From a virus (lineage: Duplodnaviria > Caudoviricetes): DNA of 64,000 nt. The stretch is taken from the IMG/VR virus record IMGVR_UViG_2773857985_000001, positions 1 to 64,000 of that record; one strand, 5' to 3'. The notes below the pieces were generated by a model that saw only the letters and a list, made by a program, of their open reading frames with translations, searched no databases and was not told the DNA's origin. This document shows positions 8,119 to 55,949 of this stretch, in pieces. Positions within the stretch are counted from its first letter, which is position 1. Each line of letters starts with the position of its first letter. The position numbers were made by a program, and so were the translations under genes.

Positions 8119-8742
8119 TCAGAGGCTGGTGAAGCAGCCGTTGAAGCCGACCCACACAGGCAGGTCGGACGGCCTGGAGATGCCATACAGGCGAATCCAG
8201 CCGGCGGTGGTGACGTCCATCTTCAGGGAGATGCGGCTGGAGCCGATGTCGGAGCAGGGCACGGTGATGGTCCGCAGGGAGGCGGGTCGGGCCGTGGTGG
8301 GCAGGGCGGTGGTGTTGAGTTCGAAGTAGCCGGGGATCGTCGTCGGGTAGCTCGACCTGCTGATGCCGCCCCGGAACATGATCGAGTCTTCGCCGAACAA
8401 GTTGACGACCCGGTACTGGAAGGTCCCCTGGCTGTTGCCGTTCTGGGTCCAGCCGGATGCGAGCGGCACGGTGGTCCAGGCCCGGTTGCCGACGGCGACG
8501 ACGACCCACACGCTGTCGACGCGGAGTTCGAGGCGGCCCACGTCCTCCAGCCAGGTCAGCATGCCGTCGACGGGCGTGTAGTCGCCGACGAGAGTCGCGC
8601 CGCGTTCGGACGCGGAAGCGAACCGGAGCACGCCGCGGGGGATGACGCCTGCTGCGAGCGCTGCGATGGCGTCCGGGATGGAGGGGGCATCGGTCATCTG
8701 CCAAAGGCTGATGCCCTGCCCCCAGCCGTCAGGTTTGGGCAC
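8119..8742 (-). CDS. Minor tail protein
   Basis: Position; FASASERGA motif and beta-rich fibre-tip-like C-terminus. Confidence 0.75.
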   Translation of the reverse strand: MPKPDGWGQGISLWQMTDAPSIPDAIAALAAGVIPRGVLRFASASERGATLVGDYTPVDGMLTWLEDVGRLELRVDSVWVVVAVGNRAWTTVPLASGWTQNGNSQGTFQYRVVNLFGEDSIMFRGGISRSSYPTTIPGYFELNTTALPTTARPASLRTITVPCSDIGSSRISLKMDVTTAGWIRLYGISRPSDLPVWVGFNGCFTSL

Positions 8743-8751
8743 GCGCCCCTC

Positions 8752-9360
8752 CTAGATGGTGTAGCTGACGCCGTCGAGGGCGATCCACGACGGCAGGGGT
8801 GATGAAGCGTCGTAGGTGCGGATGACGCCCGTCGGGGTGATCTCGACGCGGGCGACGGCGGGGTTGGTGTTCTGGTCCCTGGCTGCGGCCCATCCGATCT
8901 CTACGCCGGGTCGTATGGCTGCGGGCAGCGTGAGAAGGGTGGAGGCGTTGGCGATCGTGCCGGATGTGGGTCCGATGCGTCCGCGGAGCCAGATGCGGCG
9001 GCCTTCCCGCAGGTAGGCGGCGTTGTAGCCGTGGCCCGGGTTGGTGTACCCGGAGGCGAGCGTGAGTAGCGTCCACACGGATTCGGTGGTGGCGTTACGC
9101 CCCCAGGTGATCCAGTTTCCTGCACTGTTTTGGCTGATGACGATGGTGTTTCCGACGGCGAGCAGGCGGCATGTTTCCATGCAGCGCACTGCCGGAATAC
9201 CGGCGACGGCGACGGTGCCGTCCGCGTTGACGGCGGTGACGGTGGCGAGTCGCCAGTCGGAGCCGCGGACGGACGGGGCGGACTCCCCCGCCCTGGTGGC
9301 CTGCTGTTTGAGTGCCCAGGCGAGGTCGCGGTGCACTGCCAGGGCGGGTTTCTCCGGCAT
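8752..9360 (-). CDS. Minor tail protein
   Basis: OB-like N-terminal spike region and LPAAIRP fibre motif; start MPEKP overlaps the upstream stop. Confidence 0.75.
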   Translation of the reverse strand: MPEKPALAVHRDLAWALKQQATRAGESAPSVRGSDWRLATVTAVNADGTVAVAGIPAVRCMETCRLLAVGNTIVISQNSAGNWITWGRNATTESVWTLLTLASGYTNPGHGYNAAYLREGRRIWLRGRIGPTSGTIANASTLLTLPAAIRPGVEIGWAAARDQNTNPAVARVEITPTGVIRTYDASSPLPSWIALDGVSYTI

Positions 9361-10454
9361 CAGGCGTCCTCCTTCGCTGCGATCGTGGAGATCGGCAGGT
9401 CCCCCTCCTCGGACAGGGGTACGGTGAACGCGGCGACCTGGTGCAACTCTCTGGTGCCGTCCTCGTGGGTGACGCGGATGACGTCCCCCGGCTCCAAAGC
9501 CGGGTTGGGCAGCGAGCTGATGTCGCCGGTGGCGTTGGGGGTCTTGGCCTGCCGCAGCTTGAGGATGGCGGCCTGCTGGCAGGCGTTCTCCGACGTGAGG
9601 GTGCTGGAGGAGTAGAAGTCGGGGCGGCGCCCGAACGGGCCACCCCAGTACGTTGGGGAGCCGGGGTCGTCGTCGACGGCCAGCCACGACACCGGCGGGA
9701 TGTTCTCCGACGTGTTCTCGCCCCGCGCCAAGATCCCGTTGTGGACCTTCTCGCTGCTCATGGCCCGGTTGCCTTTGATGTAGACGCCGCCCTCGACGGC
9801 CTCCACCGCCCACACCGGTTCCGTCTCCAGCAGGTCCGGCAGGGTAGCGATCACGAACACTCCGTCCGCGTTCGCGTACACCTCAGCGCCGGCCGCAGCG
9901 GCGATCTCCTGGGCGCCGGCCCACGGGTCGGCCTCGACGTCGAAGGTGCGGGTGCCGATGATGGTGTCGTCGATGAGGCTGATGATGTCGGCGTCGGGGA
10001 GGCTGCGCTGGATGAGGGCGGTGACCGCGCCGACTACGGTGCCGGTGGCCGTCCACGGTTCGGTGAGTTTGTCGTCGGCGACGCACCCGGACAGGTCGAC
10101 GCCCTGCAGGTTGACCGGGCCTTCGTTGACGTCGCCGTCGACGGAGTCGAGGCGGAACACGCCCAGCGGCACCAGCTCCGGGGCGTCGGGGTTGCCGTAG
10201 TCGACGCCGCGGGAGATGCGGAGCCGGGCGCCGTAGGTGGCGAGTTGGTCGGTTGGCGTCCTCGGGATGACGGAGGGGTCGGCGACGGTGACGGTGCAGG
10301 TGCGGCGGATGGCCTGTCCGCGGTCGACCGTGACCGACCCGCCCGTGTGCTCCAGGTCGACGACCTCCCCGGTTGTCAGGAACAGCTGCACGCTGGTGGC
10401 GACGCGGTGCGATTCGGCGAGCCGTGCGAGAAAGCGGTCCGAGACGGGGTACAT
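9360..10454 (-). CDS. Minor tail / hub protein (DUF5047-like)
   Basis: GSVTVDRGQAIRRTC, PLGVFR, PNPALEPGD motifs. Confidence 0.8.
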   Translation of the reverse strand: MYPVSDRFLARLAESHRVATSVQLFLTTGEVVDLEHTGGSVTVDRGQAIRRTCTVTVADPSVIPRTPTDQLATYGARLRISRGVDYGNPDAPELVPLGVFRLDSVDGDVNEGPVNLQGVDLSGCVADDKLTEPWTATGTVVGAVTALIQRSLPDADIISLIDDTIIGTRTFDVEADPWAGAQEIAAAAGAEVYANADGVFVIATLPDLLETEPVWAVEAVEGGVYIKGNRAMSSEKVHNGILARGENTSENIPPVSWLAVDDDPGSPTYWGGPFGRRPDFYSSSTLTSENACQQAAILKLRQAKTPNATGDISSLPNPALEPGDVIRVTHEDGTRELHQVAAFTVPLSEEGDLPISTIAAKEDA

Positions 10455-10458
10455 GCGG

Positions 10459-12690
10459 TCACCCCGTTCGGCGGTCGAGCAGCAGATCCTCGCTGGTGGC
10501 GTACACGGGCAGCAGGTCGGCGCAGGTGGCGAACTCGGCGACCACGTCCTGCCAGGTGCGGCCTGCCGCTCCGTTGACGCCGGTAGTGACGGGCATGTCC
10601 TGCTCGGTCAGCGGGAGCGTCCAGGCCCGCCACTGCTCCTGGGCGAGCCGGGTGACGCGGTCCTCGGAGACGTTGGCGACGGCGATGTACATGTCGGCGA
10701 CGCCCATGCCGGGCGCGGCCTGCCACAGCAGGGTGTTGCCGGAGTCCAGCAATAGGTGGAGGGCTGCCCGTTCGGCGTCGGTGCGGGTCCAGATGGCAAG
10801 GTCGCCCTCCAAGCCCTGCCTTCTACCGCTCAGCACAACCTTGTTGCGTCGCCCGCGGACCACATGCACGGCCTGCTCGATGGGCCGCTCCCAGCCCGGG
10901 GCCGTCTGGACCACGACCAAGCAGTTCCGTTGCGGATTCCCCGGGTCCTTGATCCAGGCCGTGTTGATGTCGGCCAAGGTGAGGAGTACCGGATCCGTAG
11001 AGCGCGTGGATGCGATCACACCTGGGCTGCTGTACAGCTCGATGCGGTAGTAGACCTGGACGCCGAGCGGTGCTTCGTGGTCCTCCAGGATCATGGCGTC
11101 GCTGGTGATGGGCTGCTGGTCGATGAGCCCCGACGGGCCTCGGACCAGGGCCCGTAGGCCGTCCGGGGTGATCCGGTACACGCTGTACAGGTATCCGTCG
11201 GGCAGTTCCCGCAGCGTCAGCTGGATGTAGCCGTCTGTCGGGACTGCCGTCACGGAGCTGAGTGGCAGAACCTGCCACAGGGCGACCGCGTCCACCCACA
11301 GCACCGACGCTGCAGCCCCCGCAGCGGCGACCACCTCCACGGCCGCCTGCGCAGTACCGGCCGGGGCCACCGCATCCGATGTCAGCTGATACCAGCTGCC
11401 CGCCGGGAGCGCGTAGGCGAGGCCGGTGCTGGTGCCGAGGTCGCCGCCGCCGCCGTCGTACCAGTGGGTGCGGACCCGGACCGACGTCCAGGATCCGGCG
11501 CCTTGCCGGACGATGATCCGCGCCCGCCAGTTCACGCCCTCCGTGACCGGGGCCAGCGGAGACCGGATGGTCGATGTGGTTGCGGTCGGCGTGGTGGCGG
11601 CCAGCGCGTAGTTCCCGGCCCAGCCTGCGGCGCCCCACGGTGTGGTACGGGCCAGGGTTGCGGCGCCTGCGGTGACCGTCCATCCGCCGATGCCCTGCTC
11701 GAAGCTGCTGCTCGCGTAGGGCAGGACGGTGCCGGTGACGAGCGGAATGAGGGCTCGGACGACGACGGTCTCCAGGCGCAGCACCTGCCCTGCGGCGGCA
11801 CCGTCAATGCCCGCAGCGAACCCGCAACTGGCGGCGCCCGCAGGGGCGACGGCCGACAGAAGCTGCCGGTAGAAGCCGGTGCCCGGAGCCGCAAGCGCCG
11901 CCCGCGTCGCCTGGATCTGGTTGCCGTTGCTGTCGAAGAACCGCAGCTCGATCCAGCAGGCCGACGCCATCGTCGGCGGCTGCAGATAGGCGTAGCAGAG
12001 GTACTCGGCGCCTGGGGTGACCGTCGGCCGGTCCACGGAGCCGACCGCGGCATTGCCTGCTGCGCTGGCGGTGACGGCGAGGGTGTGGCCGCCCGCGTAG
12101 TACCAGTCGACGGCCCAGGACACGACCGGCACCTGCCGGGAGATCGTCGCGTTGACTTCCGGTGTCCAGCCGGACGCGTCCAGCTCGGTGGATTCGGTTC
12201 CGAAGCCGAACAGGTTGCCCGTCGTGCGGACAGGCAAACCCAGGTACACGTTCTCGAAGTAGGACACAACGCCCGCGGCGGCCGGCGTCATCATCGACAG
12301 CACTACCTGCGCCTTCGCTGCCCCGACGGGGGCGGTTCCGGCGACGCTGATGCGGTGCCATGCTGCGGCGGCGGCCATGGTGACCAGCGACCACGTGATG
12401 CTGATCTCCGCTCCGGCCGCGGTGAGCCAGCGGATGCCGATGCGTTCGGGGACGGTGGCTCCGGAAGCGTCGGCGAACGCCTGATAGGTGACGCCAGGGA
12501 TGATGGTGTAGGAGGAGACGGTGCGGACCTGTGCCTCGCCTGCTGCGAGAGATCGGACGAGGAGGCAGCCGTCTCCGTTTCGGCCGCCTGCCCCCTTCGC
12601 GGGCAGGCAGTTCGACTTGGTCGTCCAGCCGGAGATGTTCGGATCGACCATCTCGGTGGTCGGGCTGAGGAGGTTCCCGGGGATCGCCAA
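10459..12690 (-). CDS. Distal tail protein with repeated carbohydrate-binding-like modules
   Basis: Three NL..SFE..GW / APAGA repeats; follows the TMP. Confidence 0.8.
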   Translation of the reverse strand: MAIPGNLLSPTTEMVDPNISGWTTKSNCLPAKGAGGRNGDGCLLVRSLAAGEAQVRTVSSYTIIPGVTYQAFADASGATVPERIGIRWLTAAGAEISITWSLVTMAAAAAWHRISVAGTAPVGAAKAQVVLSMMTPAAAGVVSYFENVYLGLPVRTTGNLFGFGTESTELDASGWTPEVNATISRQVPVVSWAVDWYYAGGHTLAVTASAAGNAAVGSVDRPTVTPGAEYLCYAYLQPPTMASACWIELRFFDSNGNQIQATRAALAAPGTGFYRQLLSAVAPAGAASCGFAAGIDGAAAGQVLRLETVVVRALIPLVTGTVLPYASSSFEQGIGGWTVTAGAATLARTTPWGAAGWAGNYALAATTPTATTSTIRSPLAPVTEGVNWRARIIVRQGAGSWTSVRVRTHWYDGGGGDLGTSTGLAYALPAGSWYQLTSDAVAPAGTAQAAVEVVAAAGAAASVLWVDAVALWQVLPLSSVTAVPTDGYIQLTLRELPDGYLYSVYRITPDGLRALVRGPSGLIDQQPITSDAMILEDHEAPLGVQVYYRIELYSSPGVIASTRSTDPVLLTLADINTAWIKDPGNPQRNCLVVVQTAPGWERPIEQAVHVVRGRRNKVVLSGRRQGLEGDLAIWTRTDAERAALHLLLDSGNTLLWQAAPGMGVADMYIAVANVSEDRVTRLAQEQWRAWTLPLTEQDMPVTTGVNGAAGRTWQDVVAEFATCADLLPVYATSEDLLLDRRTG

Positions 12691-17420: not shown

Positions 17421-17873
17421 CTATGCGGCGCCCCCTTGCAGCAGCTCAAACAGGGTGTTCGCGGACTTGTTGGTGAGCTGCGCCTTCTTCCGCGGCCCCG
17501 CGCCCGGCCGGCGCATCGCCTCGGGCGGATCCGGTCGCTTCGACTTCTTGTCGACGTTCAGGCAGATCAGCGTCCACTCCATGTGGCGGACCGCATCCAC
17601 GGCGGAGGCCAGCAACTGCTCCTGCTGTGACCAGGGGGCCTTCTCCGGCTCGCCCTTGTCGGCCTGCTCGGCGAGCTGCTGCGGCGTGAGCCCGTTGCGG
17701 AGGGCGGTCATGGTGTGCGATTCGGGTGGCAGGTGCTCGATGAAGACGCGCAGCCACCGCCACGAACGCCTGCCGGTGAGGACGTCCGCGATGTCGTAGT
17801 GCCGCTCGATGAGGTCGGCTTCTACCGCCTCCGGGTGGGCCTGCCAGATCGCGATCGTCCCCTGGACTTTCCC
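17421..17873 (-). CDS. Tail assembly chaperone, -1 frameshift extension (gpT-like)
   Basis: No own start/SD; entered by a -1 shift at GGGAAAG giving GKVQGTIAIW... Confidence 0.8.
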   Translation of the reverse strand, partial: GKVQGTIAIWQAHPEAVEADLIERHYDIADVLTGRRSWRWLRVFIEHLPPESHTMTALRNGLTPQQLAEQADKGEPEKAPWSQQEQLLASAVDAVRHMEWTLICLNVDKKSKRPDPPEAMRRPGAGPRKKAQLTNKSANTLFELLQGGAA

Positions 17874-18250
17874 AGGGACTCCCCCGACTTGGCGCTGGCG
17901 TCCTCGACGAACGCGTTCCACTCCTCGAGCGTCGGGTCGATGTCGAGGTAGAACTCGTAGTCGTCCGGGTGGAGGATCTTCTGCGCGAAGGTGTCGATCT
18001 GCCCCTGGTTGAGGGCGCGTGTCCAGGAGGCCCGCCACATCGACGGCGGCACCACCTGCACGTCCTCGCCGCACAGGTCAGCGGTGACGTAGCCGTCGGC
18101 TTCGATCTCCTGCGCTTCGGCAGCCGACACTTCAACGTCATCGGTCTCCGGCTCCACGTCCGGCTCGACCGCCCGCCGGGTGGCGGGGCGGGATGCGGCA
18201 CGGGCCGCAGTGCGCGGCTTCCTGCTGGTGCTCTTGCTCGTGGTGGCCAC
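17822..18250 (-). CDS. Tail assembly chaperone (gpG-like)
   Basis: Between major tail and TMP; ends ESLGKS... Confidence 0.85.
   Translation of the reverse strand: MATTSKSTSRKPRTAARAASRPATRRAVEPDVEPETDDVEVSAAEAQEIEADGYVTADLCGEDVQVVPPSMWRASWTRALNQGQIDTFAQKILHPDDYEFYLDIDPTLEEWNAFVEDASAKSGESLGKSRGRSRSGRPTRRR
17867..17873 (-). other. Programmed -1 frameshift slippery site G GGA AAG
   Basis: CTG GGA AAG in the chaperone frame; same heptamer as lambda gpG/GT. Confidence 0.85.
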
Positions 18251-18344
18251 GGCGCGGGCTCCTTCATGTCAGGGCGCGGGCAAGGATGGTGGTGAAGGTG
18301 GGCGGGCCGGGCCCGCGCCGACGGTGATCGGCCCGCCCACCAGC

Positions 18345-18932
18345 TCAGGACCCGGTGTACGCCTCGGTCTCAGGCACCCGGTCGAAGTGATAGACCGTGT
18401 TCCCGGCGAGGTCCGGGTAGGCGGTGATCGTCCACTCGTAGCCGGCGACCTCAGACTGCTGGTGATTTACGTCCGACCGCTCCGTGATCTCCCCCTCCGG
18501 CACGTAGAAGCCGCGCTGGAAGTTGTCGCCGTCGAGGACGATGAACCAGAACGCCCTGCGGTCCGGCTCCGGGGACGCGGTCTCCGCGAACGACGTGAGA
18601 CCGTCGACCGGGGTCAGGTCCGCCGAGTCGAGTCGGTACTGCAGGGCCTGCACGGTCGTCCGTCCGGTCTCCCACACCGTCAGCCCGAACGTCCGCAGCG
18701 AGCTGGTGATGGTGGTGCGGATCGGCGCCGTGTACCCCCACGGCGTGAACGACTCCGAGTCCTCCTCGAAGCCCTGCACCAGACCGTCGTCGCTGATGGC
18801 GCCGAGCGGCAGCCACGGGCCCACCGGCTGAATCGCCGGATCCCCGGGCGACGACGTGCCCAGCGGCGCCGTCCAGCCGGCCCCGTTCGCGCCGACCTCC
18901 AGCAGATCCGCAGCGCGGGTGATGTTGACCAT
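18345..18932 (-). CDS. Major tail (tube) protein
   Basis: WLPLGAISDDG, TPW, YEWTITAYPD motifs; GGAG SD before ATG 18932. Confidence 0.9.
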   Translation of the reverse strand: MVNITRAADLLEVGANGAGWTAPLGTSSPGDPAIQPVGPWLPLGAISDDGLVQGFEEDSESFTPWGYTAPIRTTITSSLRTFGLTVWETGRTTVQALQYRLDSADLTPVDGLTSFAETASPEPDRRAFWFIVLDGDNFQRGFYVPEGEITERSDVNHQQSEVAGYEWTITAYPDLAGNTVYHFDRVPETEAYTGS

Positions 18933-19006
18933 GATGTCTCCAGACATGCGTGAAGCCCGCGCACGGGCGGGTGGTGAAAGGGGCCTGGCGCGGGCCGAAC
19001 AGCCGG

Positions 19007-19399
19007 TCAGGAAACCGGGTGACAGAAGATCTCGAAGGTGCCGCCGACGCGGCGCAGGGCGGTGTTCTCGTAGGGCCGGGCGGCGGGCAGGGTGACGACA
19101 TCGGCGCGGCCGATGGTCAGCGTGCTGGTGGTCGAGCCACGCAGCTCCCGCTCCACCCAAGCGACGGTCTCGCGGGCCAGGTCGAACGCCGCCTGGCGGG
19201 TGGCCGCGTACACGTCGATGTCGACGAGCATCCGCGCCAGCCGGCTGGCCGCAAGGTCACCGCCCGGGACCTGCGTGATCTGGATCGTCGGCAGCTCGTC
19301 CAACAGGCTGTTGTCCAACTCGTCGCGGACCACAGCGGCGGGCCAGCGGGCCTGAGCCCGAGGAATCAGTTCGCCCTCGATGTCAACGACGACGATCAC
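19007..19399 (-). CDS. Tail terminator
   Basis: Position; VDIDVYAAT motif. Confidence 0.75.
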   Translation of the reverse strand: MIVVVDIEGELIPRAQARWPAAVVRDELDNSLLDELPTIQITQVPGGDLAASRLARMLVDIDVYAATRQAAFDLARETVAWVERELRGSTTSTLTIGRADVVTLPAARPYENTALRRVGGTFEIFCHPVS

Positions 19400-19725
19400 T
19401 GGTTCCGCCCACCGATCTGCGCGGCCCGCAGCAGCACGTGGTGGGCGGTGACTTTCTCGGTGCCGTACTCCACCCAGCGGGCGTAGTAGGCGGTGTTGCG
19501 AACGTAGCCGACAGCGCGGTCTCGGCGTCGGCCGCCGCGCCTCGTGCTGTCCGTCTCCCACGACTCCTTGTAGTGCCCCGGGTCAGGACTGTTCTGGTCG
19601 ACCGGGGAGAGGGCGACGGCGACGCTCTTGATGACCTCCGCGCGGCGCAGCATCTCCGCTTCCATGCCGGGCATGCGCAGCATCTGCCCGATGCCCTTCC
19701 GCTTCGGCTTGAACCTGGCAGCCAC
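19396..19725 (-). CDS. HK97 gp10-like neck protein
   Basis: SPVD..GHYK, YARWVEYGT motifs. Confidence 0.85.
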   Translation of the reverse strand: MAARFKPKRKGIGQMLRMPGMEAEMLRRAEVIKSVAVALSPVDQNSPDPGHYKESWETDSTRRGGRRRDRAVGYVRNTAYYARWVEYGTEKVTAHHVLLRAAQIGGRNQ

Positions 19726-19740
19726 CAGTACCTCCCTCGG

Positions 19741-20112
19741 TCAGCCGGTGACGCGGTCGGCGGCGAACTGGATGACGCCGCGGGTGCCGGTGAACGGGGA
19801 CCGTCCCCAGTCGCCGGGTTCGCCAGTGATGTCGCAGTCGACACCGCGGATCCGGGCCTTGTCCGTAGTGCGCAGCGGCATGCCGGGCTGGTCGGCGGGC
19901 GCGTACACGGTCCAGCCGACGATGACCGTGTCCCGCTCCTGCTGCTCCGGGCCGCCCACCTGCGGCGTCTCCGCACGCGGCGTCACCACACAGCCCGGTA
20001 GGTCGAACGACTCATCGGGCCCAGGCAGCGGCTGGCCACGAGGATCCCGGCCTGGCGACTGGCCGGTGCGGACGATCCGCACGGTCTCCCCGAACGGGTA
20101 CGGCGCCGGCAT
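19741..20112 (-). CDS. Head-to-tail stopper
   Basis: Position; DPRGQP, GEPGDW.SPFTG motifs. Confidence 0.8.
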   Translation of the reverse strand: MPAPYPFGETVRIVRTGQSPGRDPRGQPLPGPDESFDLPGCVVTPRAETPQVGGPEQQERDTVIVGWTVYAPADQPGMPLRTTDKARIRGVDCDITGEPGDWGRSPFTGTRGVIQFAADRVTG

Positions 20113-20525
20113 CAGGAGTACCCCCAGCCCGGTTCGAACTCGTCGGCGAAGCCCATGTCGTCGATCGGCCACGTTGGCGACGGATCAGCCGTCTCCGGAG
20201 TCGGATCGATCGTGAACGCCCCACCCCGGCCCGCCAGCGACTTCAGCGCCGACTTGTCGGCCTTCGTCAGGTACAGGCCGCCAGACCCCTGGGGGCGCTG
20301 CACCGACATCGGGCCGATCGTCTCGTAGCTCACCTGCTGCGGGTTGACGTAGGCGCGGCCCGCCACCGACAGGACGACCGCCTCCGCACCCTCAGGGAGC
20401 GGTTTCACGACCGTCTGACACAGCGACGCCGCCGTCGAGAGCAGCAGGTCAGCGCGCGCACCGTCGATCTCACCCATGCCCAGGTATAGGCCGAGCTGCT
20501 CGGCGGTCGGAGGGACGAATGCCAT
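20112..20525 (-). CDS. Head-to-tail adaptor
   Basis: RAYVNP..YETIGP..LYLT motif typical of actinophage adaptors. Confidence 0.85.
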   Translation of the reverse strand: MAFVPPTAEQLGLYLGMGEIDGARADLLLSTAASLCQTVVKPLPEGAEAVVLSVAGRAYVNPQQVSYETIGPMSVQRPQGSGGLYLTKADKSALKSLAGRGGAFTIDPTPETADPSPTWPIDDMGFADEFEPGWGYS

Positions 20526-20535
20526 AACACCCTCC

Positions 20536-21567
20536 TCAAGCCAGAGACTCCACAGCCGAACACCACGCCGCCAGATCGGCGGCAGGATCCAGTTCGGCAG
20601 ACCGGGCCCGCGCCCGCTTCGACGCCAGCCGGAACTCGGCAGGCTGCATCAACTTCCGCAGCACCGCCTCGTAGCCGTCGACATCGTTCCGGTCCACGAA
20701 GATCCCGGCCTCACCGAGGGACTCGCACAGCCCCGGGGTGGGGTGCGCGACGACCGGGATACCGGAGGCCAACGCCTCGCAGCCGGCACGGCCCCACGAC
20801 TCGTAGGACGACGGCATCAGCAGCACCCGAGTGCGGGCATACACCCGATCTCGCATGTCCTCGCCGCGGACGTGGTCGACGACCTCGACGTTGGGCAAGT
20901 CCGGGAGGATCTGCTCCCCGTAGGCGCCCCGCACTGCCAGGAACTGCTGATCCGGCATCCGCTCGGCGAGGGCTCGAAGAACCTTGCCGCCCTTCTCCGG
21001 GTTGCAGTTGATCAGCGTGATGGCCTTGCCGGGCTTCGTCGCATACTCGGCGGCGAACACCGGAGGCCGCACGATCAGCGACTCGGCCGGGCGGACGGCC
21101 TTCGGGTACTCGGCGAAGAACAGCTCCGCCTCACGGGCCATCCACCGGCTGTTGTAGACCGCCAGTGCCGTCCCGCCCGCCGCAGCATCGCGGAAGGTGG
21201 GCCGGTGCGTGTTGTGGCAGACCACCACCAGCGGCTTGCCGTAGCCGCGGGCCAACGACGCCGTCGACGGCACCGTCTCCAGATGCGCCACCAGCACATC
21301 CGCCCGGCGCACCGCAGTCGGAAAGTCCAGCCGCGACTCCAACGGGACGACATGGATGCCGCGGTACTCGTACTCCTGGTGGGCCTTGCCGTAGCGGGAC
21401 AGCCACACCTGCACATCGTGGCCACGCTCCACCAGCGGACGCAGCATCGACACAAGCATGTGCTCGGCGCCCGCATTGTGCTCCGGCGGCATCGCATGGA
21501 AGCGGGCCACGACCTTCAGGGGCTTGGCTGCCCCGCCCGGCGCGGAAGCCGAGACAGCCCTGCTCAT
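20536..21567 (-). CDS. GT-B glycosyltransferase (GT4 family)
   Basis: AGAE, GHDV, KGG, LMPSSYESWGRAGCEALASGIPVV (EX7E motif). Confidence 0.92.
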   Translation of the reverse strand: MSRAVSASAPGGAAKPLKVVARFHAMPPEHNAGAEHMLVSMLRPLVERGHDVQVWLSRYGKAHQEYEYRGIHVVPLESRLDFPTAVRRADVLVAHLETVPSTASLARGYGKPLVVVCHNTHRPTFRDAAAGGTALAVYNSRWMAREAELFFAEYPKAVRPAESLIVRPPVFAAEYATKPGKAITLINCNPEKGGKVLRALAERMPDQQFLAVRGAYGEQILPDLPNVEVVDHVRGEDMRDRVYARTRVLLMPSSYESWGRAGCEALASGIPVVAHPTPGLCESLGEAGIFVDRNDVDGYEAVLRKLMQPAEFRLASKRARARSAELDPAADLAAWCSAVESLA

Positions 21568-22526
21568 CAGGCGCTACCGGACGGCGTGCCCGTGTACTTG
21601 ACGAACGCGTCGACGTCACCGAGGACGAAGCCGTAGTACGCCTCCGCCAGGATCAGCACCAGGTTCTCCTGGAACGCCGAGTGGACGCCGCCCTCCTCGT
21701 CGACGTAGGTGGCCTGGTCGGAGATCCGCACCGTGATGTCCATGCCCACGCCGTAGGCGGCCTGCGACCAGTCGCCGCCAATCGCCCGCAGCCCCGAGTC
21801 CACCGATGCCGACTGCCGGCGCTGCTTGCCCGACACGGACCGCGAGTAGGCGAGCGGCTCACCGATCAGCGTGCCCGCCGCCGCCATGTTCGTGCCCGGC
21901 GTCTGCGTGTCCACGAGGATCGGACGGCCCGTGGTGTCCGTCGCCAGCAGCAGCGACGGCTTCAGCCGGTGGTCCGCCACGGTGCCGGTGTAGTCCCAGT
22001 CGGAGTCGACGACCTCGGCCATGCCGTTGACGAAGTCGGCCCAGATGCCGCCCTGCGCCTGGGTGGCCGTGCCCAGCGCCACCGAGTTGGTGGTGGCGGC
22101 GAGGTACTCGGTGAACGGGCCTGCCGCGCCCTTCATGGTCTTGCCGTGGATCGTCGCGTGGTCGAAGGCGCGGGCGAACGCGGTCGGCAGATCCTTCTGC
22201 AGCTGGTCGTACAGGCCGCCCGCGTTGGTCTTCGCGACCTCCATGGCGACCGGGATGAGCACGGCGACCTTCTTCGCCTGCATCTGCTTGACGTCCACGC
22301 CGCCGGTCGACAGGGGCTTCTTGGCCGCCTGGCCGACCCAGTCGGCGACCGGGACGTCCATCGGGATCGGCACCGAAGTGGTGGCGTCCAGGGCGAGCGG
22401 CGCCGGGCGTGCCAGCTGCATGACCGCGGACGCTTCGACGGACTTCTCGAAGATCGGCGCGGTGATCGTGCGGGGCAGGAGCGCGCCGTCCACGTTGGAC
22501 AGCGTCAGGGGGGCGGTGACCGCCAT
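21567..22526 (-). CDS. Major capsid protein (HK97 fold)
   Basis: WVGQ..KP, GDWSQ..YG, FQENLV.I.AE motifs; follows the scaffold. Confidence 0.93.
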   Translation of the reverse strand: MAVTAPLTLSNVDGALLPRTITAPIFEKSVEASAVMQLARPAPLALDATTSVPIPMDVPVADWVGQAAKKPLSTGGVDVKQMQAKKVAVLIPVAMEVAKTNAGGLYDQLQKDLPTAFARAFDHATIHGKTMKGAAGPFTEYLAATTNSVALGTATQAQGGIWADFVNGMAEVVDSDWDYTGTVADHRLKPSLLLATDTTGRPILVDTQTPGTNMAAAGTLIGEPLAYSRSVSGKQRRQSASVDSGLRAIGGDWSQAAYGVGMDITVRISDQATYVDEEGGVHSAFQENLVLILAEAYYGFVLGDVDAFVKYTGTPSGSA

Positions 22527-22545
22527 GATGTCTCTTCTCCCGAAG

Positions 22546-23196
22546 CTACGTGAGCTTCGAACTCAGCCACCCGGCGAACTCGTCGCGAGGGTTGGGGGCC
22601 TGCTTCTTGTTGGCACCGGATGCCTGTGTGCGGTCCGGTGCGGGTCGCCGCGGGCCCTCCGGGGGCTGGGTCTTCGCCCAGTGCGGCTTGCGCTCCAACA
22701 GCGCCTGGAGATCCGCCTCGATGGCGGACTCGTTGATGTCGCCCGAGTCGTCGATGTACGAGTCCAGATCGAGCTCGCCGAACGCGTCAGCCGGATCGGC
22801 GAACGCCGCCCGGCCCTCGGTGGCCGTGCCGGCGAGCGCCTGCACCTGGCTGCGGACCAGTCGCTGCCGGGTCTTCGCGATCTGATCCTGCGCGGCAGTG
22901 AGCTGCTCGTTGAGGCGTTCGGACTCGGAGAGTTCCGCGTCCTTGCGCTTCTGCAGCTCGGCGAGCAGAGGCTCCTGCTCCTTCAGGCGCTTGCGGAGGT
23001 TCGCGGCCTCTGAGTTCGCCTTCCGGATCTTCGCCTCGGCCTGCTTCCGGTCGAACGGCTTCTCCTCGCTGCTGGTGTCCGCCTCCTGGGCGGTCTCCTG
23101 CTGCTCGGTGCCGCTCTCCTCGGTGGCCGTCTCGTCGACGGTCTCCTCAGTGCCGGAGTCGGTCTGCTGCTCGGTCGTCTCGGTCTCTTCGGGCAT
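22546..23196 (-). CDS. Capsid scaffolding protein
   Basis: Acidic N-terminus, EAANLRKRLK coiled coil, KPHW motif. Confidence 0.85.
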   Translation of the reverse strand: MPEETETTEQQTDSGTEETVDETATEESGTEQQETAQEADTSSEEKPFDRKQAEAKIRKANSEAANLRKRLKEQEPLLAELQKRKDAELSESERLNEQLTAAQDQIAKTRQRLVRSQVQALAGTATEGRAAFADPADAFGELDLDSYIDDSGDINESAIEADLQALLERKPHWAKTQPPEGPRRPAPDRTQASGANKKQAPNPRDEFAGWLSSKLT

Positions 23197-23258
23197 GACG
23201 AATCGGCCCTCCAGGGGCTGTCGAAAAGGGGAAGGCCGCCACCAGGGCGACCCGTTGA

Positions 23259-24074
23259 TCAGTGAGATCCGGGAAGCGGATACTCGTCGTGCTCCGCCAG
23301 CGCACGCCTGAACAGGCGCAACTGGTCTCCCGGATGACCTTGCGCGTACTCGCGATAGATCTCATCCCAGCGAGCCGCATGCGGCGACAACTGGAAGCGC
23401 TGGCCGCGGAAGACCGGCAGGATTCCGCAGTGGCAGTTGTTGTGGAACTTCACCACCGACGCGTCACCTGAGAACCGGTCATTCGCATCCCGACCTGCGG
23501 TTTCTGCCGTGGCATAGACCGACCCGCGGGATGCCATGAGCTTGCAGAAGGAGCAGGCGCCGAGCGCTGCCACCCGGGCATACGCCACAGCCTGCCGATC
23601 CTGCCGGACCGCCTGCCGGACCGTCTCCCGGCCCACATCAGCCACAAGACGCTGTGTGGCCATGTCTGCTTTTACGAACGCGGCCTCCAGTCGAACATCG
23701 AGGGGTTCCAGCTGTGCGGGCGTCGCCACGTCGGCGTCCCGGTCCCACACGTCCTTCGTGGCCCAGCGCATCGACGCATCCACCTGCTCGCCCGGCGGCG
23801 GATCAGCCAACCGTGCCGTGAACCCACCCGGCACATCAGCGTCTGCGCGCTGCCCGTCGTAAAAGTCCGCGGCAAGAGCCGCCGACACCTCCGCATACTG
23901 GCCCACCACAACGGCCACCGCCTCAATCCACGGCGGCACCGTCGCCTGCAACCGGCGCGGATTGATCAGCCGCCGCAGCGTTCGCAAATCCCGCAACAGC
24001 AGCGCTGTCAGGCCCTGCTGTGCAGACCGCCAACGCGCCGCGCCAGGCGAACTATCCGAGGTCGTCGACGCCAA
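23259..24074 (-). CDS. Head morphogenesis protein (MuF-like / capsid maturation)
   Basis: ACSFCKLMASRG and FHNNCHC motifs; between portal and scaffold. Confidence 0.8.
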   Translation of the reverse strand: MASTTSDSSPGAARWRSAQQGLTALLLRDLRTLRRLINPRRLQATVPPWIEAVAVVVGQYAEVSAALAADFYDGQRADADVPGGFTARLADPPPGEQVDASMRWATKDVWDRDADVATPAQLEPLDVRLEAAFVKADMATQRLVADVGRETVRQAVRQDRQAVAYARVAALGACSFCKLMASRGSVYATAETAGRDANDRFSGDASVVKFHNNCHCGILPVFRGQRFQLSPHAARWDEIYREYAQGHPGDQLRLFRRALAEHDEYPLPGSH

Positions 24075-25521
24075 CGTCGGCCTCCGACGGCTCCGTACTC
24101 GCCGTAGACGAGCCAGACCGAATCTCAGCGAAACGGTCCAGCAGTGCGCTGCTGGCCGCCCGGCCGACGCCGCGGCGCCGGTCCGCAGCGATCCGCTGCC
24201 GCTGCGGCTCCGTGAACCCAGCCATCTCCAGGGTGACGTCGGAGTCCGCGGGCAGTACCCCGGCCTGCACCAGCTTGACCGTGGCGTCCACCTGGGCCGC
24301 TACCGTCGGTGTCGCAGGGTTCCGCCACACCGTCTCGATGCGGCGGGTCTTGTCCGGGGGTTCGCCGTCTCGGATCCACAGGGCGAGCCGCATGGCCTGC
24401 TGCCACCCGGCGCCGAACCGGCGGATACGCCGTTCGGCCTTCTTGACCTGCCGGTTGTCGGCGAAGCGGATCGCGTCCGCGGAGGCGGGGTTGTCGCTGC
24501 TGTAGCCGAGGACGTGCGGGGCCACCGACATCTGCGACGCCATGATCCTGGCGTACAGATCGATGATCTTCGTCATGCCGGTCGGATCGTGCGCAGCGAA
24601 CTGGCCGACGTCCGGCACGTTGCCGTCCTCGTCCCGCTCCAACGCGAGCACACGACCGATGTACGTCTCCCAGGCGCTCTTAGCCGTACCGTCCGCGTCC
24701 TGAAACGCCGACTCCGACGCGCCCAGAATGTAGCGCTGCGGGGCGCCGAAGAACTCGGCAGCCACCTCCATACCCATCAGCCGGCGGCACGCCGCATCCG
24801 TGATCGACATAACCTCAGGAGTGATCTCCGACTTGCCGACCCGGTCTGCGGTCCGCTGCCGGTTCGCCAGACGCACGACCGGCACGACGCCGAGCCCGTG
24901 CATGTCCCGGTCGACGACCTCCCAGCCGCCAGACGCCGACGGCAGACACATCACCGTCTGATCCGGCAGATACAAGACCAGCATCCGCTCCTCAGGACCC
25001 GCCTCGATGTACGAGTCGGCGGCGCACTCTCGGAGCGCAGCCGTACCCATGCGCATGCGGGCATCCCACATCAGCGTCATGTCCAACGGCGACTCGGCGG
25101 TGATCAACGGCGGGCACTCGTCCGTTCCGCAACCACCCGACCCGACCGCCAGATACTCCCGGCCGTACACGAACGCGTCCAGGTGAGCCAGCGACGACTC
25201 GTCGAACAGGTCATTCGCCTCGGCGATCTCCGTCAGCTCACTGGAATTCGAGCCATCTGCCCACCGGAACGCCTCCAAGTCCAGGCGCTCCTCCAGCGAC
25301 TCCACACCCACCCGCGGCCAGCCAATCACCGTATGCAGCCCTTTGAGCTGCGGCGGGATGGAGATGCCGAGGTCGCGGATCAGTTGCTCGCCGTTGAAGT
25401 AGGCGTCCCGGAGTTGCAGCGCGTACCGGTCCCGCAGCATGTCAGCCCGCAGCAGGTTGATCAGCGCCTGCTCCTCGTCCGAGAGATACACCAGCGGCAA
25501 CTCAGGAATGGACAGGGTCAT
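24052..25521 (-). CDS. Portal protein (SPP1 gp6-like)
   Basis: GWPRVGVESLEERL, GKSEI, PQRYILG, NPASADA motifs. Confidence 0.93.
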   Translation of the reverse strand: MTLSIPELPLVYLSDEEQALINLLRADMLRDRYALQLRDAYFNGEQLIRDLGISIPPQLKGLHTVIGWPRVGVESLEERLDLEAFRWADGSNSSELTEIAEANDLFDESSLAHLDAFVYGREYLAVGSGGCGTDECPPLITAESPLDMTLMWDARMRMGTAALRECAADSYIEAGPEERMLVLYLPDQTVMCLPSASGGWEVVDRDMHGLGVVPVVRLANRQRTADRVGKSEITPEVMSITDAACRRLMGMEVAAEFFGAPQRYILGASESAFQDADGTAKSAWETYIGRVLALERDEDGNVPDVGQFAAHDPTGMTKIIDLYARIMASQMSVAPHVLGYSSDNPASADAIRFADNRQVKKAERRIRRFGAGWQQAMRLALWIRDGEPPDKTRRIETVWRNPATPTVAAQVDATVKLVQAGVLPADSDVTLEMAGFTEPQRQRIAADRRRGVGRAASSALLDRFAEIRSGSSTASTEPSEADVGVDDLG

Positions 25522-27251
25522 CGCAGCACCACAACCCTCCCCTTGCCCGTAGCCTTCGAGCGCTTGGCCCACGCGGGCGAGTTCATGACCATGCGACGCA
25601 GCATCCGGGCCCCGATCGCGCACACCACAAGGTCGATCTTTCGCGCCGACTCACGGTGCTCCTTGCCGATCGTGTAACCCCATGCGTTCGTCCGGCGTCG
25701 GGCGTTCGCGACGTGCTGTCGCAGAACCTTGTGTCCGTCATGCGGCACCTGCCGTTCCAAAACGTCCCGGTAGAAGCGGTCCACGGCCTCCGTGAACACC
25801 TGCTGGCGCCGACGGTCACCCATGTCCCACATCACCGCGTGCTGCCCATGCCCAGACGGCACTGCCTTCAGCTTCAGCCGCTTCCCATACCGCTGAGCCC
25901 ACGCGTCGACATAGCCATCCCAGTAGCGTTCTCCATCCGCATCGTCATATCCAGCGCCAGGGTCCGCGAAGAACGCCAGCGGCTTGTACCGGGCGAACAC
26001 CTGGTCCACCACGCCGTCGGCCTCCTCTCGCGGCACCCGATAGGGCACGTCCGATGGCCAGTTCGCCGGCCGCTGCCAGACCCCCAAAGTCCTCACGAAC
26101 CCGTCTGACATCCGGCAGCCGACCAAGCCCGTAGCGTCGTCTGACTTGGAGCCATCGAAGAACAGGACGATCCCGTCGCCCTCTTCCAAAGCGAGGCCCT
26201 CATGCGGATTGGCATCCCATTCGTATGGCGCCAAGTAGGCGTCCTCGGCCGCCGCGATCTGGTTGAACCAGAACCGGCGCGACCTGCTGGGCGGGTTACG
26301 GATGTCGAGGATCGACGCCTTGAGCCGGTCCACGTCCAGCCACACCGAATCCCCGCGGACCGCCTTCAGCGTCGGCACGATCCACGCCTCGGTCAGCTTG
26401 GCCTCGGCCGGAGCCTCCAGCGAGTCGTAGAACAGTCCGGTGTCCGCCGCGCGCCCGGCCTCCGCCGACTCGAACGCCTCCCGGGTCCGCTCGGCGACGC
26501 TGTCCTCGCCGGGCTCGTAGGCGTTCGTGTTCGCCAGCGTCCGCGCTTGGCCATCCGCCGACTTGGTGGCGTTACGCTCGATTACCGCCGCCATCTCGTG
26601 CCCCTGATTCGACTCCACCCAGTGGTGCGTCTCCCCCAGCGAAACGAACGTCGGTCGGCCACCTTCCAGAGCACGCGGCGAGGACGTGACCGCCTCGATC
26701 CGGGCCCGTCCCTTGTCGGCGTAGATGATCTCCTTGCCGAGGTCGATCCGGAACTCCTCGAGGGCCCGCTTAGTGAAGATGCTCGGGAAGAGCGTCATCG
26801 TGTTCCGCGTCTGGTCCTGCGACACCGCCGCGATCTGCACCCAGGCCGCCGGATGCTGCGTGCCGAGCGGCTGCCCCGCCCGGACACCCCACTCGTTGCC
26901 CTCGTCCGCAACCCCAGCGAGCCGGCACGGGCCGACGAACTCGAACGCCGACCACGTGGCGATCAGTGGGTCCTTGCCCCAGCCCTTCAGCCGCTGGATC
27001 ACGCCGTCCCGCCAAAGGAACCGGTTCGTCTCCGGGTCCATCGCGTACCACCACAAGGTCAGGCGAGCTTGCTCGGGCGTGTACTGCCAGGCCTTCCCGA
27101 CGTAGTGCTGCAGGTATGTCTTGGTCCAGGCGAGGCACTGCCAGCCCAGCGTGTACTCGGGCAGGATGAACTTTCCATCTGGGCCGCGCTTCCACGTCGG
27201 GCCGAGCGTGAAGGGTTCGACGACGTCGGGGACCTGCTCCTCAGCCTCCAT
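25518..27251 (-). CDS. Terminase large subunit
   Basis: RLKGWGKDP Walker A, ETHHW Walker B, FDGSKSDDAT nuclease, KID motif. Confidence 0.96.
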   Translation of the reverse strand: MEAEEQVPDVVEPFTLGPTWKRGPDGKFILPEYTLGWQCLAWTKTYLQHYVGKAWQYTPEQARLTLWWYAMDPETNRFLWRDGVIQRLKGWGKDPLIATWSAFEFVGPCRLAGVADEGNEWGVRAGQPLGTQHPAAWVQIAAVSQDQTRNTMTLFPSIFTKRALEEFRIDLGKEIIYADKGRARIEAVTSSPRALEGGRPTFVSLGETHHWVESNQGHEMAAVIERNATKSADGQARTLANTNAYEPGEDSVAERTREAFESAEAGRAADTGLFYDSLEAPAEAKLTEAWIVPTLKAVRGDSVWLDVDRLKASILDIRNPPSRSRRFWFNQIAAAEDAYLAPYEWDANPHEGLALEEGDGIVLFFDGSKSDDATGLVGCRMSDGFVRTLGVWQRPANWPSDVPYRVPREEADGVVDQVFARYKPLAFFADPGAGYDDADGERYWDGYVDAWAQRYGKRLKLKAVPSGHGQHAVMWDMGDRRRQQVFTEAVDRFYRDVLERQVPHDGHKVLRQHVANARRRTNAWGYTIGKEHRESARKIDLVVCAIGARMLRRMVMNSPAWAKRSKATGKGRVVVLR

Positions 27252-27513
27252 CGCCGCGAATGTCGCGCAGCGGGGAGCGCCGCTTCAGCTCGTTGCGCAG
27301 AAGGCATGCCTCAATGTCGCCCCGATCCGGCCGATCGAAGAAGCCCCGCAGCCGAACCACAGCGAAGTCCCGGAGGCCCTCGATTCGCCTCAGCGAACCG
27401 GCGTACAGACACTGCTGTTGCGGGATGTCGTGAAGTCGGGCCCAGGCCTGCGCCTCGTCCTGGCTGCCCGCGCAGACGACGTACTTGACCACGTCAGCCC
27501 CCTGCGATGTCAC
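27241..27513 (-). CDS. Hypothetical protein between the terminase subunits
   Basis: Fills the gap with overlaps on both sides; start may be GTG near 27491. Confidence 0.55.
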   Translation of the reverse strand: MTSQGADVVKYVVCAGSQDEAQAWARLHDIPQQQCLYAGSLRRIEGLRDFAVVRLRGFFDRPDRGDIEACLLRNELKRRSPLRDIRGDGG

Positions 27514-27931
27514 GGTACGAGTCCAGCGGGCTCACCGACGCCAACTGAGGGCCAGCGGGCTTCTTCCGCTCCAGCTCCATACGAGCCCGGCGGCGATCGC
27601 CCTCGGTCGTCAGCAGCGACGACATCACCGAGTTCAGTGCGGCTACCAGCTGGCCGTTCGGCCCGCGCTCTGACTGCAGCACCTTCGACATCAGGTCGGC
27701 TGCATACCGGGCGACCGCCCAGTCCGACGGCTCGTAGAACGCGGCCTGCCCCGACTCTCTGAGCGAGAGGTACCAGTCCGCGGCGATCGGATGCCACAGC
27801 GGGTCTGCGCCGGGCAGGTCCGGCAGGTCGCTGGGGGCTCCAGAGGGGGCTTGGATCAGTTCGGGCCCGTCGTCCTTGTTGCGGCGACGACGTTCCTCGG
27901 AACGCTTCGGGATAGGTCCGTGTGCGCCCAT
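27494..27931 (-). CDS. Terminase small subunit
   Basis: GPIPKRSEERRRRNK, WHPIA..WY, TEGDRRRARMEL motifs. Confidence 0.9.
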   Translation of the reverse strand: MGAHGPIPKRSEERRRRNKDDGPELIQAPSGAPSDLPDLPGADPLWHPIAADWYLSLRESGQAAFYEPSDWAVARYAADLMSKVLQSERGPNGQLVAALNSVMSSLLTTEGDRRRARMELERKKPAGPQLASVSPLDSYRDIAGG

Positions 27932-28013
27932 GACGACCTCCAGGGTCAATGCACGCCACCAGGGCGCACGAAGGGCTGGAAACAACGACGCTCGCAGGGA
28001 CGCCGCCAGGGCG

Positions 28014-30968: not shown

Positions 30969-31556
30969 TCAGGGTTTCCAGCGGGGTCCGCGTAGTGCGG
31001 CGGGCACGTCGCTGGTGGTGATGGGTTTGATGCCGAGGACGTGGGCGAGGCCTCTGATTCCGGTCTGTGCGGGCGCGGTCTGCATGCGGGTGCAGGGTTC
31101 GCTGGGCTGCGGCCGGTCGAGTCCGGTGAGGGTCTCGTAGGTGAGCCCGTGGGCGTGGGCTAGGTCGAGGAGTTCGGGGCAGTCGTTGAGGTTGTCGATG
31201 TTGGGGAGTCCCCAGTCGTCCAGCCCGCAGCCTTCGCAGGCTGCCGCGTAGGTGACGCTGTCTGCCTGCCCGGGGTCGAGCCGGTGCCGGGCGAGGATGC
31301 GCCGGTCGGCTTCGCAGCGGCGCAGGATGGCGGCCACGGCCTGCACGGGCGCGGGCGTGTCGTCGCGAGCTTCGACGCCGTACTGGGCGACGTTGAGCTG
31401 CATGCCGTCGGGGGTCTGGGTGACGCTGGTGACGATGCCGGTGATGGCGGGCCCGCCACTGTGGGGTTCGAAGACGACGCGGCGGCACTCCAGCTCCGCC
31501 TGGGCGGCGGCTTCCACGGTGTCGACTTGCTGGGTGATCCAGGCGTAGAGATCCAT
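30969..31556 (-). CDS. DUF6221-like protein
   Basis: AILRRCEADRRILARH motif. Confidence 0.65.
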   Translation of the reverse strand: MDLYAWITQQVDTVEAAAQAELECRRVVFEPHSGGPAITGIVTSVTQTPDGMQLNVAQYGVEARDDTPAPVQAVAAILRRCEADRRILARHRLDPGQADSVTYAAACEGCGLDDWGLPNIDNLNDCPELLDLAHAHGLTYETLTGLDRPQPSEPCTRMQTAPAQTGIRGLAHVLGIKPITTSDVPAALRGPRWKP

Positions 31557-31587
31557 GGCGCGGGCTCCGGGTGGGGTCAAAGATCGG

Positions 31588-36606: not shown

Positions 36607-36643
36607 GGCGACTGCCCTCCTCGGGCGGGGGCGCCGCGCGGCG

Positions 36644-55906: not shown

Positions 55907-55921
55907 CCGTTGGCCAGTTGG

Positions 55922-55949
55922 AGGCCCCGCCCGATATCGGGCGGGGCCT
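55922..55949 (+). terminator. Intrinsic terminator
   Basis: aggccccgcccga / tcgggcggggcct followed by a T-rich tract. Confidence 0.8.

Follow-up and report, generated by a model that had tools for sequence, protein, structure and literature searches.

A capsid-linked GT4 glycosyltransferase and fixed C-terminal serine or threonine residues point to probable virion glycosylation in a family of actinomycete prophages

We analysed a 64,000-nt stretch of viral DNA (Caudoviricetes; positions 1 to 64,000 of the IMG/VR record IMGVR_UViG_2773857985_000001), here called the window, in which a gene for a GT4-family glycosyltransferase (GT) directly follows and overlaps the major capsid gene. Comparison of related loci makes it probable that this capsid-linked enzyme glycosylates the virion at the terminal Ser or Thr of the capsid and tail-tube proteins, which we regard as the best reading of the sequences. 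We infer the two acceptor proteins, the terminal-residue site, the nature of the sugar and the role of a second sugar cassette from these comparisons. The initial annotation of this DNA had likewise suggested that the phage glycosylates its virion and, in addition, that a motif YTG(S/T) near the ends of both proteins may be the acceptor signal. The former proposal gained support from the placement of the GT4 gene and from the fixed Ser/Thr ends; the latter did not hold.

A GT4 gene lies between the capsid and adaptor genes

The window is part of a prophage in a Streptomyces-like genome, with its structural module on the minus strand. The genes that matter most for the argument are the following.

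21567-22526, minus strand: major capsid protein, 319 amino acids (aa), ending ...FVKYTGTPSGSA (PF05065, E 3e-22, residues 14-312)
21565-21569, minus strand: TGATG, the overlap of capsid stop and GT4 start, taken as a site of translational coupling from the junction sequence
20536-21567, minus strand: GT4-family glycosyltransferase (GT-B fold, retaining type), 343 aa, assigned by Pfam, phrog_26352 and an AlphaFold2 (AF2) model
20112-20525, minus strand: head-tail adaptor-like gene, named from gene order and by the initial annotation
Between adaptor and tail tube, minus strand: three small neck genes, one of them HK97 gp10-like
18345-18947, minus strand: major tail (tail tube) protein, about 195-200 aa, ending ...PETEAYTGS (PF25681, E 1.5e-12)

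On the minus strand the junction reads ...GGTAGCGCCTGATGAGC..., so that the capsid open reading frame (ORF) 21567-22526 ends ...PSGSA-stop and the ATG of the GT4 gene shares its A with the capsid TGA. This reading agrees with the initial annotation, which had noted the overlap (TGATG at 21567), had recognised the gene behind the capsid gene as a GT4 enzyme that breaks the capsid-adaptor order, and had quoted the ends of the capsid and major tail proteins as ...KYTGTPSGSA and ...AYTGS. Both ends are as quoted, the GT4 gene does lie between the capsid gene and the adaptor-like gene, and its class is borne out by N- and C-terminal Pfam domains and by a model with a GT-B fold. The junction sequence is the same in contigs of two public sequencing runs (depth 76 and 159, 0 differences), both of which possibly stem from the source strain. 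The adaptor-like gene gave no match in a Pfam scan; it is the conserved partner downstream of GT4 in 119 loci.

A search with the capsid protein yielded 133 loci, i.e. 53 genome loci and 80 IMG/VR loci (80 kept of 159 matching stretches), and certain contigs occur in both collections. A GT4 homolog is found immediately downstream of the capsid gene in 130 of the 133 loci. The three loci without it are distant (52-65% capsid identity) and belong to Leifsonia, Nocardioides and Mycobacterium. In addition, all 28 long related viral records carry GT4. Streptomyces and related actinomycetes serve as hosts for this GT4-linked family, whose members are temperate phages of about 80-90 kb.

The TGATG overlap is present in 97 of the 130 related loci; judged from the listed junctions without a tally, most of the other 33 have a GTGA overlap or a 1-nt gap. 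For some capsids of the family the aligned GT4 gene starts 129-141 nt downstream, and these capsids retain the Ser end. The Ser codons at the capsid ends differ (TCC, TCG, AGC). A consensus scan of 17800-23500 for promoters and terminators found none, using a weak sigma-70 consensus that is poorly suited to such an organism.

The last residue of the capsid and the tail tube is fixed

All of the 130 GT4-linked capsids end with Ser (116) or Thr (14). The tail tube ends with Ser in 111 of the 112 readable cases, and its S200 is invariant in 46 aligned sequences. The single exception is the tail tube of an Actinomadura prophage (L053:10858-11421), for which a neighbouring frame reads ...GS-stop at the same place; this is probably due to a 1-nt indel or frameshift near the end of the gene. 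The constancy concerns the last position of otherwise variable tails: 34 distinct terminal 12-mers were found for the capsid and 61 for the tail tube. Over these distinct tails, positions -1 to -5 have an entropy of 1.5-2.6 bits, whereas the value falls at the last position to 0.67 bits in the capsid and to 0 bits in the tail tube. Both proteins have short tails with many Gly, Ser, Thr and Pro residues.

For comparison, the control proteins (scaffold, GT, adaptor and gp10-like protein) have 9-13 different last residues each. Other virion proteins with a fixed last residue have a conserved tail as a whole, e.g. ...DRVTG or ...HPVS. Among 3459 long ORFs of the host genome with a high G+C content at third codon positions (GC3), the last residue is Ser in 7.3% and Thr in 3.4%, and Gly-Ser is found at 0.75% of the ends. 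On this comparison of sequences, the feature common to capsid and tail tube is a C-terminal Ser or Thr, usually after a small residue and mostly as Gly-Ser.

The same ending recurs with unrelated capsids

Of 400 species genomes sampled from the host's family, 23 carry a GT4 homolog at a threshold of E ≤ 1e-60. We examined 17 loci around more distant GT4 homologs, and 10 of them turned out to be prophage structural modules. Two of these (L303 and L305) are of the window's own type, and four (L299-L302) form an intermediate clade with capsids 58-61% identical to that of the window. The ends were read for L299 and L301 of this clade: the capsids end ...AAGGGS and ...TPGGS, and the tail tubes, which belong to another subtype, ...GAAS and ...GAGS.

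The remaining modules have capsids of other types. L297 has an SU10-type capsid (PF17236, E 5.5e-97) ending ...ATSSGS, which is followed by a methyltransferase-like gene and then GT4, and its tail tube (PF25681) ends ...WGIGIS. L294 has a P22-type capsid (PF11651, E 2.6e-13) ending ...LAPSGS, followed by one small gene and then GT4; its tail tube ends ...ILPASSS. The distant PF05065 capsid of L295 ends ...ATTAAS and precedes two tandem GT4 genes (8192-9169 and 9809-10801 of that locus). The tail tube of the TurkishDelight-like prophage L298 ends ...MCLAS.

Two further observations were made at these loci. Some lineages (L295; L298 and TurkishDelight gp20) have a tandem duplication of GT4, either as two genes or as one fused ORF of 678-883 aa. 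The small gene between capsid and GT4 in L297 (9657-10160, minus strand) is methyltransferase-like by two Pfam matches that fall short of the curated cut-offs, a hint that the sugar of that prophage may be methylated too.

Relatives without the enzyme have the YT motif but no fixed end

Two scans with the Leifsonia-type and Nocardioides-type capsids yielded a set of 131 sister-clade loci, none of which contains a GT4 homolog. In the 29 longer sister records, eight of them at least 90% complete, no match was found to PF00535, PF00534, PF01755 or PF13692; the same four-family search detected all 5 of 5 GT-bearing records used as a positive control. The last residues of the 123 readable sister capsids are F (47), S (38), A (16), V (7), L (5), D (5), Y (4) and N (1), and close sister capsids vary at the last position alone (...YTDAA, ...YTDAS, ...YTDAV, ...YTDAN). 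In this comparison, what accompanies the GT is the constancy of the last residue, not the mere presence of Ser.

The initial annotation had asked whether relatives without the GT also lack the YTG(S/T) tail motif. The dipeptide YT is retained in 95 of the 123 sister-clade capsids, and in the capsid it is part of the last conserved strand of the fold, inside the Pfam capsid match. YT therefore belongs to the capsid fold and is older than the GT. Of 111 family loci, only 28 carry the exact motif YTG[ST] on capsid and tail tube alike, and the motif is absent from the independent GT4-linked lineages, Che8, Corndog and TurkishDelight. On these grounds YTG(S/T) was abandoned as the acceptor signal.

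In four of five sister loci examined (L184, L194, L205 and L219), other ORFs occupy the position of GT4 between capsid and adaptor. They were considered as glycosyltransferases and rejected, as their Cys/His motifs, judged by eye, look like those of HNH endonucleases. The capsid/adaptor junction looks like an insertion hot spot.

The GT4 enzyme is predicted to be active

The N-terminal part of the protein matches PF13439 (30.4 bits, cut-off 28.5) and PF13579 (29.9 bits, cut-off 29.7), and the C-terminal part matches the GT1 families PF13692 (59.3 bits, cut-off 27) and PF00534 (48.1 bits, cut-off 26.4). Further matches are to PF20706, "GT4 in conflict systems" (31.7 bits), and to phrog_26352, a family of unknown function (E 1.8e-169). 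An AF2 model built on 46 family sequences has a predicted local distance difference test (pLDDT) score of 90.9 and a predicted template modelling (pTM) score of 0.87; it shows a GT-B fold with two Rossmann-like domains. A Foldseek search of the PDB with this model gave at least 500 matches at E ≤ 0.001, with GT4 enzymes on top (E 5e-14 to 1e-10, query-normalised TM-score 0.58-0.78).

The best structural neighbours are ManT (7qsg), MshA (3c4q), BshA, PimA and PglA, all of which are retaining GT4 enzymes. A sequence search of the PDB gave distant GT4 matches only. The GT4 family is marked by an EX7E motif in the C-terminal domain, which is represented here by E256-S-W-G-R-A-G-C-E264, with both Glu invariant in 46 sequences. 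The modelled GT-B fold, the matches to retaining GT4 enzymes and the invariant EX7E motif make the enzyme look catalytically competent. While it shares fold and motif with these neighbours, it is only 12-22% identical to them, and their acceptors are inositol phosphate, malate, lipids or glycans; the predicted structure carries nothing that reveals the acceptor.

A proposed mechanism and an optional sugar cassette

We propose that the GT4 protein is a late, virion-directed protein O-glycosyltransferase, which would be translated from the capsid message by coupling via the overlapping stop and start codons. It would draw on a nucleotide-sugar donor of host or phage and, by a retaining mechanism, transfer the sugar to the hydroxyl group of the C-terminal Ser or Thr of capsid and tail-tube subunits, usually in the context ...Gly-Ser-COOH. 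The result would be a sugar coat on the particle. In the closest solved capsid homolog (9d9w, E 4e-23), about 90 more residues follow the aligned ...AFVKLT strand, and therefore this capsid type can carry C-terminal appendages.

A cassette of four genes lies about 10 kb upstream on the same strand:

34361-35071, minus strand: second glycosyltransferase, GT-A fold (phrog_14945 "glycosyltransferase", E 1.6e-44)
33765-34370, minus strand: S-adenosylmethionine (SAM)-dependent methyltransferase, start uncertain, the ORF being open up to 35000 (PF13649, E 1e-13; PF08241, E 4e-11)
33181-33888, minus strand: second SAM-dependent methyltransferase (PF13489, E 3e-9)
32067-32948, minus strand: NAD-dependent nucleotide-sugar epimerase/reductase of the short-chain dehydrogenase/reductase (SDR) type (PF01370, E 1.4e-35; phrog_540, E 1e-47)

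The second GT has no Pfam match at E ≤ 1. Its AF2 model (pLDDT 84.3) is closest in Foldseek to the fucosyltransferase WrtF, which uses GDP-fucose, and then to SpsA (E 1e-9 to 1e-8), and the motifs D39xD41D42 and G93D94D95H96 are invariant. The best NCBIfam match of the SDR protein is GDP-L-fucose synthase (NF047922), at 83.5 bits far under the cut-off of 500. The GT-A and epimerase genes co-occur in the same 16 of the 28 long related viral records, all of which have GT4. We read this as GT4 being the core, probably initiating, enzyme and the cassette an optional elaboration. The cassette, found in about half of the relatives and in the window prophage, would probably extend or decorate the sugar; its product is perhaps a methylated 6-deoxyhexose, which we infer from the gene content.

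One methyltransferase matched the mad2 model of PADLOC (E 5e-13), which we ascribe to a shared methyltransferase domain. Beside the cassette and distant from the main structural module are two structural-looking genes on the minus strand (35376-36212 and 36223-36765). One matches part of the 1152-position profile of phrog_14065. The second, whose product ends ...WTFSAS, has a match to phrog_240, "head protein". Both may encode additional proteins of the virion, possibly related to the glycan. DUF6221-like paralogs in the early region (30969-31580 and 37251-37697) flank the cassette on both sides, the first with a match of 20.8 bits, under the Pfam cut-off.

There is also a broader, tentative version of the proposal, to which we give somewhat less than an even chance: the GT4 enzyme would be portable and linked to the capsid gene, with a one-residue code by which a major virion protein that ends with a small residue and a terminal Ser or Thr (with its free carboxylate) receives a sugar. 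The enzyme would then have moved among at least three Pfam capsid families (HK97-type PF05065, SU10-type and P22-type) and TurkishDelight-like actinomycete phages, and the optional cassette would add a methylated deoxyhexose on top. Since the GT-A enzymes of Che8 and Corndog are not related to GT4, two enzyme classes would, under this one-residue code, have converged on a C-terminal serine as the acceptor.

Evidence against virion glycosylation and alternative explanations

Several observations weigh against virion glycosylation by the GT4 enzyme. Enzymes of the GT4 class act mainly on lipids, sugars or small molecules, and in the fold search the protein O-glycosyltransferases GtfA (4pqg) and SdgB (7ec6) rank 44 and 47. 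A blastp comparison of GT4 with the Che8 and Corndog enzymes gave nothing better than E 0.04. No phage structural genes were found near the GT4 homolog in seven of the 17 distant loci (L289-L293, L296 and L304; about 48-58% identity). When the neighbouring ORFs of L290, L291, L293 and L304 were scanned, no structural family was detected; the matches were to an ABC transporter, an epimerase-like protein, an esterase, a sigma factor and a transposase. The GT4 family seems to include cellular members at about 50% identity, and it is possible that the homologs without nearby phage genes are cellular relatives, or the source, of the phage enzyme.

The protein ends also provide counter-evidence. The 38 Ser ends among the 123 readable GT-less sister capsids include those of L241 and L266, whose records are at least 97% complete and lack all four GT families; terminal Ser alone is therefore no mark of glycosylation. 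The 130 loci represent a single lineage, and their agreement reflects one origin plus maintenance. Lastly, the capsid of the window itself is the sole family member seen that does not have Ser or Thr as its last residue: it ends ...GSA, with Ser next to last (the final two codons lie at 21570-21575), and this end is backed by two assemblies. Relatives at 98% capsid identity have ...GGG TCC TGATG, i.e. a Gly-Ser end, and a subgroup ends ...GSAS. Either the enzyme accepts the next-to-last Ser or the capsid site was lost in the window prophage.

The likeliest of the alternatives, though itself unlikely, is that GT4 modifies a glycoconjugate of the host envelope (a lipid, a teichoic-acid-like polymer or another glycan) and that the Ser ends of the virion proteins are unrelated to it. 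Such a modification could, late in infection, prevent progeny from sticking to debris or, in the lysogen, exclude other phages. It would fit the acceptors of ManT, MshA, BshA, PimA and PglA (lipids, sugars and small molecules), the match to the conflict-system family PF20706 and the non-phage contexts of about half of the more distant homologs. However, PADLOC gave no match for GT4, and the gene is placed inside the head-neck operon, with its translation coupled to that of the capsid in most relatives; the weak sigma-70 scan of 17800-23500 found no promoter-like site. An envelope target leaves unexplained both the invariant terminal Ser/Thr of the two major virion proteins and the recurrence of the Ser end with three other capsid types. 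The latter recurrence also argues against a different protein target, e.g. portal, scaffold, tail fibre or decoration protein, with the Ser/Thr of capsid and tail tube being kept for structure or assembly, which we regard as improbable. A precedent for the structural part exists: the tail terminator-like protein ends with Ser in 93 of 109 cases, inside a conserved ...HPVS tail, and therefore a terminal Ser can be kept as part of a fold; Ser ends on GT-less capsids are also in line with it. Yet in the tails of capsid and tail tube neither sequence nor length is constant and only the last residue is fixed, unlike a packed structural element. The same ending is seen where GT4 adjoins unrelated capsid folds, and also on both of these proteins in Che8 and Corndog, phages that are reported to be glycosylated.

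Two further explanations have, in our estimate, very little chance of being correct. One is that GT4, with or without the cassette, glycosylates phage DNA (e.g. hydroxymethylated bases) as a protection against restriction. A passage of PMC12619734, citing Pyle et al. 2024, states that phage glycosyltransferases commonly act on DNA, and the prophage has a DNA C5-methylase (62279-63988). But in the whole genome, 100% complete by marker genes, no hydroxymethylase or thymidylate synthase of the ThyA type (PF00303) was found, which makes DNA glycosylation unlikely; moreover, GT4 lies in the head module and not in the replication module, and the rule of the terminal Ser is not accounted for. The other would make the ...SGS end of the capsid a by-product at the nucleotide level, as capsid stop and GT4 start overlap or adjoin each other in most loci and the last capsid codons thus also hold the ribosome-binding site of GT4. 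This is contradicted by the tail tube, whose Ser is the most invariant although no gene overlaps its end (the next ORF is about 95 nt downstream), by the Ser-ended capsids with GT4 at a distance of 129-141 nt, and by the variation of the Ser codons. Glycosylation of the capsid and tail tube by GT4 is the explanation that we prefer to all of these.

Setting of the structural module

The host of the window prophage is an actinomycete with an 8.58-Mb genome in 188 contigs and roughly 70% G+C, and the nearest capsid relatives come nearly throughout from Streptomyces genomes. The other genes of the structural module are listed here.

27494-27985, minus strand: small terminase (PF25673)
25518-27251, minus strand: 577-aa ORF, putative large terminase by position and size
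24052-25623, minus strand: 523-aa ORF, putative portal by position and size
23259-24074, minus strand: VG15/MuF-like protein
22546-23196, minus strand: scaffold
After the tail tube in module order, minus strand: chaperones and a 1565-aa tape measure

Phage-like genes continue up to the right edge of the window (53796-63988) and include NUDIX, Rv2179c-like exoribonuclease, DUF4326 and C5 DNA methylase genes. Related viral records span about 54-105 kb, among them an 81,961-bp record with direct terminal repeats. The prophage probably extends past the window. Near the left edge, on the minus strand, are genes for a protein with a GmrSD_C domain (667-1335), as in type IV restriction directed against modified DNA, and for a protein with a resolvase/serine-recombinase N-terminal domain (2778-3383). 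These two genes may mark the prophage end and the integrase.

Significance

To our knowledge, virion glycosylation has so far been shown in only a few mycobacteriophages. If our proposal is correct, sugar-coated virions are common among the phages of soil actinomycetes, given GT4 in 23 of 400 genomes of the host family and 159 IMG/VR stretches retrieved by the capsid search. A second, unrelated class of enzymes would perform virion glycosylation, and the acceptor would be predictable from the sequence by the terminal Ser/Thr on capsid and tail tube, so that glycans on phage particles could be added or removed by one-codon edits. Antibody evasion cannot be the purpose of the coat in soil; its natural role might be stability, protection from proteases, or attachment to or avoidance of cell-wall polymers. 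Whether serine has to stand at the very end could be read from the window capsid, whose Ser-Ala end would be a natural test case.

Comparison with known systems

Virion O-glycosylation in mycobacteriophages was reportedly described by Freeman et al. in 2023 (Cell Host Microbe 31:1216) for Che8 gp108-110, Corndog gp36-38 and Myrna. In the deposited genomes, the capsid and tail tube of Che8 end ...NKTGS and ...YSDGS, and those of Corndog ...PLVGS and (putative tail tube, gp49) ...IKGDS. The Myrna region that was examined has no gene labelled capsid, and the Myrna ends were left out of the comparison. Che8 and Corndog resemble the phage family of the window in having phage-encoded GTs. Their Ser ends have a counterpart in the family at large (Ser or Thr on 130 of 130 capsids, Ser on 111 of 112 tail tubes) and in the window tail tube (...TGS), while in the window capsid (...GSA) Ser is next to last. 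Corndog also has its GT genes beside the capsid gene, immediately on the upstream side, and Che8 gp108 combines a GT2 domain with an O-methyltransferase domain, paralleling the GT-A and methyltransferase genes of the cassette. The enzyme class and the gene placement differ. The Che8 and Corndog transferases are GT-A enzymes matching the GT2 and GT25 families, whereas GT4 has a GT-B fold and is wedged, with an overlapping start, between the capsid and adaptor genes. Blastp of the second GT (34361-35071) against the Che8 and Corndog enzymes found none at E ≤ 1.

The virions of Che8, Corndog and Myrna are described as glycosylated by phage enzymes in passages of three papers (PMC12363180, PMC12619734, PMC11256854). 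One of these passages (PMC12619734) locates the glycans to the C-terminal ends of capsid and tail-tube subunits, and passages of PMC12363180 and PMC11256854 state that the modification shields mycobacteriophage particles from antibodies. The premise of the initial annotation that Che8 carries its glycans at these C-termini stands in so far as it is stated in the passages of these citing papers (PMC12619734, PMC12363180, PMC11256854). Che8 is mentioned in the Jabs and HFTV1 preprints for its capsid structure only.

A tblastn search of 50,697 phage records with GT4 gave a single match, gp20 of the Streptomyces phage TurkishDelight, which is annotated as "glycosyltransferase". The literature search found no function reported for it, and no report of a GT4/terminal-Ser system in Streptomyces phages. 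Like the window gene, it is a homologous GT4 gene (about 39-46% identity) between those for the capsid (gp17) and the major tail protein (gp21), which end ...GSTS and ...CVAS. It differs in being a 678-aa tandem of two GT4 modules and in being separated by two genes from that of its capsid, which is another protein, of 575 aa.

A further parallel comes from cellular surface structures. Oligosaccharyltransferases of the TfpO/PilO type O-glycosylate pilin at its C-terminal serine. They are membrane enzymes that use a lipid-linked glycan in the periplasm, whereas GT4 would be a cytoplasmic enzyme using a nucleotide sugar, and there is no homology between the two. The pilin system and the mechanism proposed here would nevertheless have the same outcome, i.e. 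a glycan on the last-residue Ser of a polymerising surface protein.

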